This document shows, piece after piece, positions 913-64,000 of a DNA stretch of 64,000 nucleotides; the stretch's first letter is position 1, and each line of letters opens with the position of its first letter. The stretch is from a virus (lineage: Duplodnaviria > Caudoviricetes): positions 14,857 through 78,856 of IMG/VR virus record IMGVR_UViG_3300005805_000070. The stretch is one strand, 5' to 3'. Under the pieces are notes generated by a model. That model saw only the letters and a list, made by a program, of their open reading frames with translations, had not been told where the DNA came from and made no database searches. A program made the position numbers and the translations under genes.

Positions 913-1422
913 TTAAAAATAATTAAAGTTTATAACAACTCTAACTTTTTCGTCAGTGCAAGTTGATCCTGTATGCATCAATCTAGAATCAAATATAGCC
1001 ATTCTATTTTCAACACTGTCAACAACTGCACCATCCTCAAAAGCAGTATAACCATTATTTGTATTCATATACAAAATGGCAGTTTTGGATTTATTATCTT
1101 CTTTTAAGTTTAAAATATCAATATGATATCCATGCTCGATGTGCCTTTCTGTCCTAGTCAATAGATTTGCCTTGATACGCATAATAGAAGTTGGATTGAT
1201 AACTTCTATTATGGGTACTATCTCATTATAATATTGGCTTCTGGGGGAAAACCCATCATAAAAAGTATGGGTGAATTGATAATTATTTGGGTGTTGATCA
1301 TTATCATCAACTACACCATCATTATAATACCAAGGGAAATCACTTCCATTGATCATCAGGGTCTGAAGTTCTTTGAAATATTCTTCACTCAAATAATCAT
1401 CGATTACTTTTATTAAGTCCAT
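913..1422 (-). CDS. 2OG-Fe(II) oxygenase superfamily protein
   Basis: HxD (GYHID), distal His (LMHTGS) and C-terminal Arg (RVVINFNYF) motifs. Confidence 0.8.
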   Translation of the reverse strand: MDLIKVIDDYLSEEYFKELQTLMINGSDFPWYYNDGVVDDNDQHPNNYQFTHTFYDGFSPRSQYYNEIVPIIEVINPTSIMRIKANLLTRTERHIEHGYHIDILNLKEDNKSKTAILYMNTNNGYTAFEDGAVVDSVENRMAIFDSRLMHTGSTCTDEKVRVVINFNYF

Positions 1423-29442: not shown

Positions 29443-29517
29443 TAGCGGTGGCGAGATTCGAACTCGCACTGTATTGATTTTAAGTCAACTGCCTGCTGCC
29501 GATTGGGCTACACCGCC
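29443..29517 (-). tRNA. trnL-UAA: tRNA-Leu(UAA), short variable loop, no encoded CCA
   Basis: Acceptor GGCGGTG/CACCGCT-A; anticodon arm GTTGA-CT TAA AA-TCAAT; T arm GCGAG-TTCGAAT-CTCGC. Confidence 0.9.
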
Positions 29518-29556: not shown

Positions 29557-29629
29557 TGCCCGTTGCGTGGATCGAACACGCCTAAATTCGATTATGAGTC
29601 GAGTCCTTTCACCAGATAGGTAAACGGGC
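29557..29629 (-). tRNA. tRNA with CAU anticodon (elongator Met or lysidine-type Ile2)
   Basis: Acceptor GCCCGTT/AACGGGC-A; TCGA-CT CAT AA-TCGA; T arm GCGTG-TTCGATC-CACGC; lacks initiator features. Confidence 0.85.
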
Positions 29630-63194: not shown

Positions 63195-63223
63195 ATTATA
63201 CACAAAAAAAGAGGGGTAGTCAA
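63195..63223 (-). promoter_or_regulatory. sigma70-like promoter
   Basis: TTGACT-N17-TATAAT. Confidence 0.75.
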
Positions 63224-63230
63224 CCCCTCT
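63204..63230 (-). terminator. intrinsic terminator overlapping the promoter
   Basis: AGAGGGGT-tgact-ACCCCTCT then TTTTTT. Confidence 0.8.
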
Positions 63231-63387
63231 TATTATAAATTGCTTCAATATCTAGAACCTGTTCAAACCACTCTCGAAGATGTATACGGTAACAAGACCA
63301 ATATTTACAACCACGATATGTAAGTTGATAACAAGCAGGTGCTCTATTATCTTTATCCATATCGTCCCAGTGGTAATGATAGTCCAT
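63220..63387 (-). CDS. short peptide with LTYRG motif (DUF4278-like), 55 aa
   Basis: Manual translation MDYHYHWDDMDKDNRAPACYQLTYRGCKYWSCY... Confidence 0.6.
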   Translation of the reverse strand: MDYHYHWDDMDKDNRAPACYQLTYRGCKYWSCYRIHLREWFEQVLDIEAIYNKRG

Positions 63388-63473
63388 TACTTATACAACC
63401 ACTGAATGTAGAAAGACAATAACATTGTAGTTAAAGCAATCGCAGCAGTTGAAGAAATAATGATTTGCATCAT
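63387..63473 (-). CDS. small single-TM peptide, 28 aa
   Basis: MMQIIISSTAAIALTTMLLSFYIQWLYK; translationally coupled at both ends. Confidence 0.55.
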   Translation of the reverse strand: MMQIIISSTAAIALTTMLLSFYIQWLYK

Positions 63474-63583
63474 TTCTTCGCTCCTGTAGTACAGTGACCT
63501 GCGCTACAGAGAGATGCTTGATGACGACGCTCTTCTTTTTGTTTTTTCTCTTTGATAATTTGTAGGAAGTTTAGCTTTTGCAT
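63470..63583 (-). CDS. small basic peptide, 37 aa
   Basis: MQKLNFLQIIKEKKQKEERRHQASLCSAGHCTTGAKK; GGAGG SD, coupled. Confidence 0.6.
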   Translation of the reverse strand: MQKLNFLQIIKEKKQKEERRHQASLCSAGHCTTGAKK

Positions 63584-63711
63584 CACTTCGCCTCCTTTAC
63601 AAACTTGACGCCACGATAGACTTCATTTTGTTGTTGAGGTTGTTGTTGCGCCTGCTCTTGGCGGCGAACTTCGGTGTCATAAGCAACACCACGATATACG
63701 ACTTGTGACAT
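63583..63711 (-). CDS. DUF4278-family peptide, 42 aa
   Basis: MSQVVYRGVAYDTEVRRQEQAQQQPQQQNEVYRGVKFVKEAK; two YRGV motifs; AAGGAG SD. Confidence 0.8.
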   Translation of the reverse strand: MSQVVYRGVAYDTEVRRQEQAQQQPQQQNEVYRGVKFVKEAK

Positions 63712-63741
63712 TAGGTTTTCTCCTTAATTTTGAGGCTAAAG

Positions 63742-63917
63742 AGCGTTCCTTCAGTCGGCTTTTGCGTCTATGGGACAGTTTTTTGGTGAGACCTGTTTAA
63801 TCTCCCAAATTAAATCATTCTTTTCTTGATAAGACAAGGATGGATTTTTATAAATCTTACCTGCCAACAATTGTGCTTGAATACAAGTTAGAATGAGTAC
63901 TTCCATAGATGAACGAT
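63742..63917 (-). ncRNA. glutamine-riboswitch-like RNA (glnA/Downstream-peptide family) with expanded P2 loop
   Basis: 5' ATCGTTCA; P2 TCTATGG/CCATAGA; 3' GACGCAAAAGCCGACTGAAGGAACG; upstream of DUF4278. Confidence 0.7.
63751..63906 (-). CDS. 51-aa ORF embedded in the riboswitch
   Basis: MEVLILTCIQAQLLAGKIYKNPSLSYQEKNDLIWEIKQVSPKNCPIDAKAD; checked codon by codon. Confidence 0.6.
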   Translation of the reverse strand: MEVLILTCIQAQLLAGKIYKNPSLSYQEKNDLIWEIKQVSPKNCPIDAKAD

Positions 63918-63950
63918 CCGTTCCGAGTCGGCTTACTTCCGTCCTATTTA
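63918..63950 (-). ncRNA. 3' half of a second, tandem glnA-like riboswitch
   Basis: ATAGGACGGAAGTAAGCCGACTCGGAACGG abutting the next ATCGTTC; 5' half not in window. Confidence 0.55.
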
Positions 63951-63955
63951 ATTGT

Positions 63956-64000
63956 TTAGCACTTAAGTTTCACAACATCCTTTCGGAGTTCTGATAGCAA
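63956..64000 (-). CDS. 3' end of an ORF entering from outside the window
   Basis: ...LLSELRKDVVKLKC-stop in frame with the window edge. Confidence 0.4.
   Translation of the reverse strand: MLSELRKDVVKLKC

Follow-up and report, generated by a model that had tools for sequence, protein, structure and literature searches.

We judge it fairly probable that the 64,000-nucleotide stretch of DNA analyzed here (the window) ends in the 3' two-thirds of a double glutamine-riboswitch leader belonging to a small cyanophage operon, with two interlocked aptamer cores, genes nested within the aptamers, and a mechanism in which glutamine turns expression on. This feature is on the minus strand and abuts the end of the IMG/VR cyanomyovirus contig (78,856 bp), which coincides with window position 64000. 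Solved structures of glutamine riboswitches contain a linchpin pair, formed by the nucleotide that follows the ACG linking strand and the one just 3' of P1 (PMC6698751; PMC6212724). The outer core in the window would join an off-contig first CGUUC to GAACG 63748-63744, with G63939:C63743 as its linchpin, while the inner core would be closed by a local hairpin of GAACG 63923-63919 and CGUUC 63915-63911, with the linchpin C63764:G63918. Two AGCCGACU elements would pair with each other, and each core would have its P2 helix closed around an entire small gene, the two genes being paralogues from one family with two cysteines (ORF-a in P2a of the first core, ORF-b in P2b of the second).

The segments that can be read in the window are collected in the table. 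Off the contig lie the remainder of ORF-a and the 5' half of the first core, that is, CGUUCA and the 5' strand of P2a; relatives have UCCUAU, immediately following CGUUCA, as the partner strand of P2a. The ORF-a fragment (64000-63959) translates to LLSELRKDVVKLKC followed by the stop and is identical to the end of the 68-aa ORF-a of a related locus, L062; the phage of the window therefore carries both nested genes. The junction strands AAGUA and GAAG are each present in one copy and come together only in the outer core. At the E-loop positions of the inner core are AAA and CG, and this core is thus without the E-loop strands of canonical glutamine-I (GAAGUA and GAAG). Elsewhere in the window, two tRNA genes are found on the minus strand at 29443-29517 and 29557-29629 (Rfam, 60.1 and 48.7 bits).

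Table. Segments of the putative double glutamine-riboswitch leader and downstream genes in the window
Feature	Position	Strand	Basis
ORF-a, C-terminal 14 codons and TAA stop (63958-63956)	63956..64000	minus	sequence read
P2a 3' strand AUAGGA (63947-63942), overlapping linking strand ACGG (63942-63939)	63939..63947	minus	
Linchpin nucleotide ls1 (G)	63939	minus	covaries with the nucleotide 3' of the last GAACG
Junction AAGUA (63938-63934), then first AGCCGACU element (63933-63926)	63926..63938	minus	sequence read
Segment order AUAGGACGG AAGUA AGCCGACU CG GAACG	63947-63919	minus	sequence read
Inner P1 hairpin: GAACG 63923-63919, loop GAU 63918-63916, CGUUC 63915-63911	63911..63923	minus	sequence read
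Linchpin partner x1 (G), in the GAU loop of the inner P1 hairpin	63918	minus	
CGUUC A	63915-63910	minus	sequence read
P2b 5' strand UCUAUGG, holding the ORF-b AUG (63906-63904)	63903..63909	minus	
ORF-b, 51-codon gene nested in the P2b loop	63751..63906	minus	intact in relatives, dN/dS, AF2 model
P2b 3' strand CCAUAGA (63773-63767), overlapping linking strand ACGC (63767-63764)	63764..63773	minus	
Linchpin nucleotide ls2 (C)	63764	minus	
Segment order CCAUAGA CGC AAA AGCCGACU GAAG GAACG C	63773-63743	minus	sequence read
Second AGCCGACU (63760-63753), junction GAAG (63752-63749), outer P1 3' strand GAACG (63748-63744)	63743..63760	minus	
Linchpin partner x2 (C), 3' of the outer P1 GAACG	63743	minus	
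Expression platform: helix CUCUUUAG / UUAAGGAG, starting at x2 (C63743)	63720..63743	minus	MFE fold
Downstream 42-aa YRG-repeat gene	63583..63711	minus	weak DUF4278 (IF17-like) match
Three further small ORFs (38, 28, and 55 aa)	63220..63586	minus	ORF list

To compare the element with its relatives, IMG/VR was scanned for the 3' core of the window, which gave at least 119 loci, with both halves of the element on the contig in 117 of those listed. Two further IMG/VR variant scans yielded 50 distinct compact elements, which were aligned. Rfam cmscan of the window itself, run at the gathering threshold and at E ≤ 10, returned no glutamine match, since the insert in P2 exceeds what the model tolerates; the original prediction had anticipated that the large insertion would hide the element from standard scans, and it does. 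Its assignment of the element to the glutamine riboswitches also gains support, as five relatives in which P2 is short and the 3' half is identical reach 34.6, 36.9, 38.1, 38.8, and 39.4 bits on the glutamine-I model RF01739, for which the gathering threshold is 35 bits. One of these five, L042, serves as a natural loop-deleted control: 5' of P2, none of the 38 bases compared differs from the window, and its 3' half is the same up to the downstream ATG, save for a small difference just before that ATG. On the glutamine-II model RF01704 (threshold, 33 bits), the relatives score 23.9 to 26.4 bits, below threshold and in every case below their own glutamine-I score. The nucleotides that contact the ligand in glutamine-I, C1, G2, G22, C58, and G59 (PMC6698751), are present in the inner core, as are those of the outer core that fall within the window. 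These matches support the element as a glutamine-riboswitch relative, and it would presumably bind glutamine. A circularly permuted glutamine-II aptamer, made of a 3' half, the linker, and the next 5' half, with P2 formed by the flanks, was also considered and rejected, as that P2 is unpaired where the first hairpin is canonical.

Directly 3' of the cores, a helix between C63743-G63736 and U63727-G63720 covers the Shine-Dalgarno sequence AAGGAG (63725-63720); the minimum-free-energy (MFE) fold of this platform, at -8.7 kcal/mol, accounts for 72% of the ensemble. Among the distinct platforms of the class with C at x2, x2 is paired and the Shine-Dalgarno is fully paired in 35 of 36. In Synechocystis, the glutamine-I riboswitch of gifB turns on translation of IF17, and according to the mechanism put forward by Klahn et al., the bound ligand withdraws the linchpin C and adjacent nucleotides from a helix that masks the ribosome-binding site (PMC6212724). 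Since the Shine-Dalgarno-hiding helix in the window starts exactly at C63743, as proposed for gifB, a glutamine ON switch is likewise suggested for the gene that begins at 63711: glutamine would stabilize the folded double core and free C63743 from the helix, turning this IF17-like gene on.

The gene in question is presumed to be the regulated one. A downstream DUF4278 gene had been predicted; a gene does stand at 63711-63583, but its match to Pfam PF14105 (DUF4278) is weak at 20.2 bits, below the cut-off of 25.3, and it matches PHROG family phrog_5049 with an E value of 1.5e-14. The start of each of the small ORFs that follow overlaps the preceding stop, and they are therefore probably part of the same operon. 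The 28-aa ORF MMQIIISSTAAIALTTMLLSFYIQWLYK (63387-63473, minus strand), whose start overlaps the preceding stop as ATGA, resembles a single transmembrane helix. The last, 55-aa ORF (63220-63387, minus strand) has a TYRGCKY motif and a weak phrog_5049 match (E = 6e-4) and may be a second YRG/DUF4278-like paralogue in the operon. In a sister clade with G at x2 (e.g., L004, L005, and L009), GGAU...GUCC and AAAGU...ACUUU hairpins precede AGGAG; the platform differs, with no clear Shine-Dalgarno-masking helix, and the switching mechanism may differ as well. Upstream, in a region that is off the contig in the window, most relatives (L005-L123) have a GTA-N8-TAC box 25 to 90 nt before the first CGTTCA, which we take to be the NtcA-site consensus. 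The box is followed by a TTGACT...TATAAT-like promoter and then by a small hairpin ending right at the first CGUUCA, an arrangement that points to transcription being under nitrogen control in addition to the riboswitch.

If glutamine sensing had been lost, the long-range helices would be kept for some other purpose, such as stabilizing the mRNA or coupling or masking the translation of the small genes. Such a loss would fit the second unit of the window and the first units of relatives, which fall below the Rfam thresholds, as well as an inner core without E-loop strands. We nonetheless consider it unlikely: the glutamine-contact nucleotides and the linchpin pairs are invariant or covarying across hundreds of contigs, the Shine-Dalgarno-hiding helix begins at precisely the linchpin nucleotide, as it does in the validated gifB switch, and the downstream gene belongs to a family under glutamine-riboswitch control.

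How the two cores are put together is read from pairs that flank P1, since the P1 strands CGUUC and GAACG are invariant in all relatives and leave their partners to be deduced from the pairs around them. The original prediction had paired CGUUC 63915-63911 with GAACG 63748-63744; both strands are there, but that pairing is probably wrong, the flanking pairs favoring crosswise partners. Most likely, given these pairs, CGUUC 63915-63911 pairs with the adjacent GAACG 63923-63919, and GAACG 63748-63744 with the off-contig CGUUC of the first core. In the window, the linchpins within each unit would be G.G and C.C, whereas the crosswise ones are G63939:C63743 and C63764:G63918. Over 55 distinct combinations, the ls1:x2 pair is G:C in 17 and C:G in 38, without exception. 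In the 50 compact relatives, 99.3% of cells are paired under the nested (interlocked) model: 40 have G:C at ls1:x2 and the other 10 have C:G, again with zero exceptions, and x1:ls2 is paired in 42 of 50 (G:C 41, C:G 1, unpaired 8). The same set shows the two AGCCGACU elements to be coupled, as the ends of the first covary with the ends of the second and not with each other, the u1p8:u2p1 pair being G:C in 27, U:A in 16, and A:U in 7, and the pair at the other end A:U in 39, C:G in 6, and G.U in 4. Joint switches of ls1 and x2 number at least 8 on the best ORF-b tree, 1 of them on a well-supported branch, which leaves the count of independent events uncertain. Nearly all relatives have a linker of 3 to 5 nt separating the first GAACG from the second CGUUC. 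At L057, the stretch from the first GAACG to the second CGTTCA is instead 26 nt with a small hairpin of its own, in effect an insertion within the inner P1 hairpin loop.

The same pairs bear on a simpler arrangement of two ordinary tandem glutamine aptamers side by side, the second of them self-contained (P1 63915-63911 / 63748-63744) and with a P2 loop that holds the ORF. There is precedent for glnA RNAs in tandem (PMC2864571), Rfam aligns the short-P2 relatives as a self-contained unit, second CGUUC to last GAACG, and the clade with C at ls1 and G at x2 satisfies the linchpins of both models. At the discriminating pairs, however, the side-by-side fit over the 50 compact relatives is only 20 to 28% (28% and 22% for the two within-unit linchpins and 20% for each of the two within-unit AGCCGACU end pairs), while crosswise partners pair in 84 to 100%, with compensatory changes, and the window's own linchpins would be mismatched. 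The discriminating pairs thus speak against the side-by-side model, and we hold this arrangement to be very unlikely; the interlocked one is preferred.

Within the interlocked leader, the P2b helix that surrounds ORF-b is a perfect 7-bp stem (UCUAUGG, 63909-63903, with CCAUAGA, 63773-63767) enclosing a 129-nt loop (63902-63774), at the coordinates originally given. An insert of 136 to 193 nt lies between CGTTCA and GACGC in 96 of the 117 listed loci, and a short hairpin takes its place in the other 21. The P2 pairs were counted from fixed anchors in the 89 distinct insert-bearing sequences among the listed loci, because the MAFFT alignment set the ATGs in register and so displaced the P2 5' strand. 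Pairs 1 to 5 are paired in 98.2% of cells; when partners were shuffled (1,000 times), the mean was 75.8% and the maximum 81.3%. Pairs 3, 4, and 5 each occur as three or four Watson-Crick or wobble types (U-A, C-G, A-U, and G-U). The pairing had been expected to be conserved and to covary across phage homologues, and such compensatory change indicates that the P2 stem is real. The MFE fold of 63917-63740 includes P2 (z = -2.2), and all three bases of the AUG lie within the contiguous P2 helix in 36 of the 89 sequences. P2 sits directly after CGUUCA and is closed by U-A and C-G, the feature of P2 in glutamine-I, with a loop of 129 nt versus about 4 nt there.

The ORF in this loop behaves as a gene. 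As predicted, the 51-codon ORF (63906-63751) starts at an ATG (63906-63904) in the 5' P2 strand and ends at a TGA (63753-63751) inside GCCGACTGAAGG, and its last codons are aptamer core: the 51-aa product ends in ...CPIDAKAD, the DAKAD tail and the stop being encoded by the conserved GCCGACUGAAGG core. In all 96 insert-bearing listed loci, an ATG stands 3 to 6 nt after CGTTCA, and in 90 of these 96, the ORF is intact with the same TGA inside the core. Relatives are 49 to 66 codons long, and the length differences are always steps of three. Median dN/dS is 0.21 to 0.25, third codon positions vary more than first and second positions, and the other two frames are closed in 22 of 22 and 21 of 22 sequences. 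Two cysteines, C8 and C44, are invariant. Purifying selection along its length thus indicates that ORF-b is a real gene, and the expectation that it would be conserved is borne out. The AF2 model, which is confident (pLDDT 86), has two helices, with the RNA-imposed DAKAD tail disordered.

The label of leader peptide that had been given to the ORF does not hold, as the product is predicted to be a folded two-helix, two-cysteine protein under purifying selection and not the usual leader peptide. Attenuation by a leader peptide (uORF) relies on a dispensable peptide with regulatory codons for the sensed amino acid, a description that does not fit ORF-b, and no conserved run of Gln codons was found across the ORF-b subfamilies. 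Searches with ORF-b found no family in Pfam, a weak match in PHROG to phrog_504, of unknown function, and, for the model in the PDB (Foldseek), no match with E ≤ 0.001. The 19 sequence homologues are all unnamed metagenome proteins except for one evident mislabel, the 51-aa P0007, which carries the JGI label "indole-3-glycerol phosphate synthase." The ORF-b frame is open upstream through the 3' half of the first core (window 63906-63994, minus strand), and some gene callers therefore give 74- to 81-aa versions that start inside the riboswitch (P0002, P0008, and P0016). That the insert is a mobile or accidental cassette which broke the riboswitch, its inverted repeat being a terminal repeat and the aptamer a relic, is barely credible: although the insert is present in some relatives and absent from others, paralogous ORFs occupy two different loops, and the flanks form an inverted repeat, the stem sequence changes between clades yet stays paired, it opens with U-A and C-G, the two pairs canonical for P2 of glutamine-I, neither aptamer half varies around the insert in 96 listed loci, and no transposase or nuclease signature was found in the ORF.

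The P2 of the first core is also long in 43 of 111 listed loci, where it holds an ORF-a of 62 to 69 aa. The ORF-a and ORF-b families are paralogous (hhalign probability, 92%; E = 6.7e-7), aligning from the first to the last cysteine. For the first and second core, respectively, P2 is short and long in 55 listed loci, long and long in 37 (plus 4 cut by the contig end), long and short in 6, and short and short in 13 (plus 2). The layout is thus found on at least 96 IMG/VR contigs, and BLAST against phage genomes places the same block in many T4-like cyanophages. Among cultured phages, P-HM1 (PHM1_179 and PHM1_180) and S-SRM01 have the layout with the ORFs annotated, and S-CREM1 has a compact version of the block, about 95 nt long, that bears a glnA riboswitch annotation. 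A gapped-pattern scan of genome contigs returned, among the matches listed, mostly chance hits in GC-rich bacteria together with five true elements, all five on contigs that look phage derived or mis-binned, a result that does not bear on cellular genomes. Metatranscriptome contigs from four studies bridge core 1, ORF-b, and the downstream start in relatives, a continuity that cannot prove transcription or map transcript ends. At L033, a manA RNA (RF01745, 174.9 bits; 1071-1268, minus strand) lies about 230 nt from the glutamine element; cis-regulatory RNAs of cyanophages appear to cluster.

Beyond the ON switch for the downstream gene, the nested genes have their start codons in the P2 strands, and the P1 strands fall in the zone where ribosomes land, so that initiation on a nested gene and folding of the sensor should be mutually exclusive. 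A nested gene occupied by ribosomes would keep the sensor unfolded, and a sensor already folded would impede initiation there. Only ribosome-free leaders would then be open to action by the sensor, and glutamine would shift output from the nested genes to the downstream genes. A further reading, in line with the original suggestion of opposite outputs, is that the interlocked double aptamer is a ribosome-gated, two-ligand switch giving reciprocal expression of the nested genes and the IF17-like operon; we put it forward tentatively and regard it as possible rather than probable. When glutamine is low or the leader is heavily translated, the two-cysteine proteins of the nested genes would be made and the IF17-like operon would stay silent; at high glutamine, the sensor would close over the nested start codons, and the downstream Shine-Dalgarno would open. 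Ribosomes terminating at UGA 63753-63751 would, however, melt the Shine-Dalgarno-hiding helix, so that translation of ORF-b could activate the downstream gene instead of opposing it.

Compared with glutamine-I (RF01739; gifB leader, PMC6212724; structure, PMC6698751), the element shares the CGUUC and GAACG strands of P1, the position of P2 directly after CGUUCA with its U-A and C-G closing pairs, the ACG linking strand followed by a nucleotide that is linchpin-paired to the one 3' of P1 (here crosswise), the AAGUA and GAAG junction strands (in its outer core), a DUF4278-type gene downstream, and a Shine-Dalgarno-masking helix beginning at the linchpin nucleotide. It differs in that the two cores exchange their 3' halves, a duplex of the two AGCCGACU elements replaces the P3 hairpin, the P2 loops of 129 to 200 nt encode proteins, and the Rfam model fails to detect the window. 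Pairs of consecutive glutamine cores are also seen in the tandem glnA RNAs of marine metagenomes (Weinberg et al. 2010, PMC2864571) and in the 99-nt "glnA" annotation of cyanophage S-CREM1 (PMC9964418), the latter a compact form of the same element; the accessible portions of these two sources give tandem occurrence only and make no mention of crosswise pairing or of genes inside P2. With glutamine-II (RF01704, the Downstream-peptide motif), the element has in common the ligand pocket nucleotides and a place upstream of short DUF4278-type ORFs, and the ACGC...GAACGG with C:G linchpin of that family is like the inner core here. In glutamine-II, however, the P1 equivalent is a pseudoknot, and the short ORF is downstream of the aptamer, not inside it. 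Group I introns carry protein genes in peripheral loops, the ORF usually being a homing nuclease and the RNA a self-splicing ribozyme. They share with the present element a complete ORF in a helix loop of a structured RNA that has to fold around it, where translation and folding can interfere; here, in contrast, the RNA is a putative metabolite sensor, and the ORF encodes a small two-cysteine protein without a mobility signature. A search of open-access full text turned up no paper in which genes are placed within a glutamine aptamer or tandem cores are paired crosswise.

Riboswitch aptamers are seen as compact noncoding domains upstream of the genes they control, whereas here whole genes lie inside the sensor. 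RNA folding would span 130 to 450 nt of translated sequence, and metabolite sensing and translation would therefore compete directly on one molecule. Because family-model scans miss the layout, riboswitch censuses in phages would undercount it. The element offers a tractable natural system for long-range cotranscriptional riboswitch folding, for cooperative double aptamers, and for the ways in which cyanophages read and manipulate the nitrogen status of the host. Should the reciprocal switch prove true, a single RNA would let the phage sense how much nitrogen its host has and alternate between two sets of small proteins.
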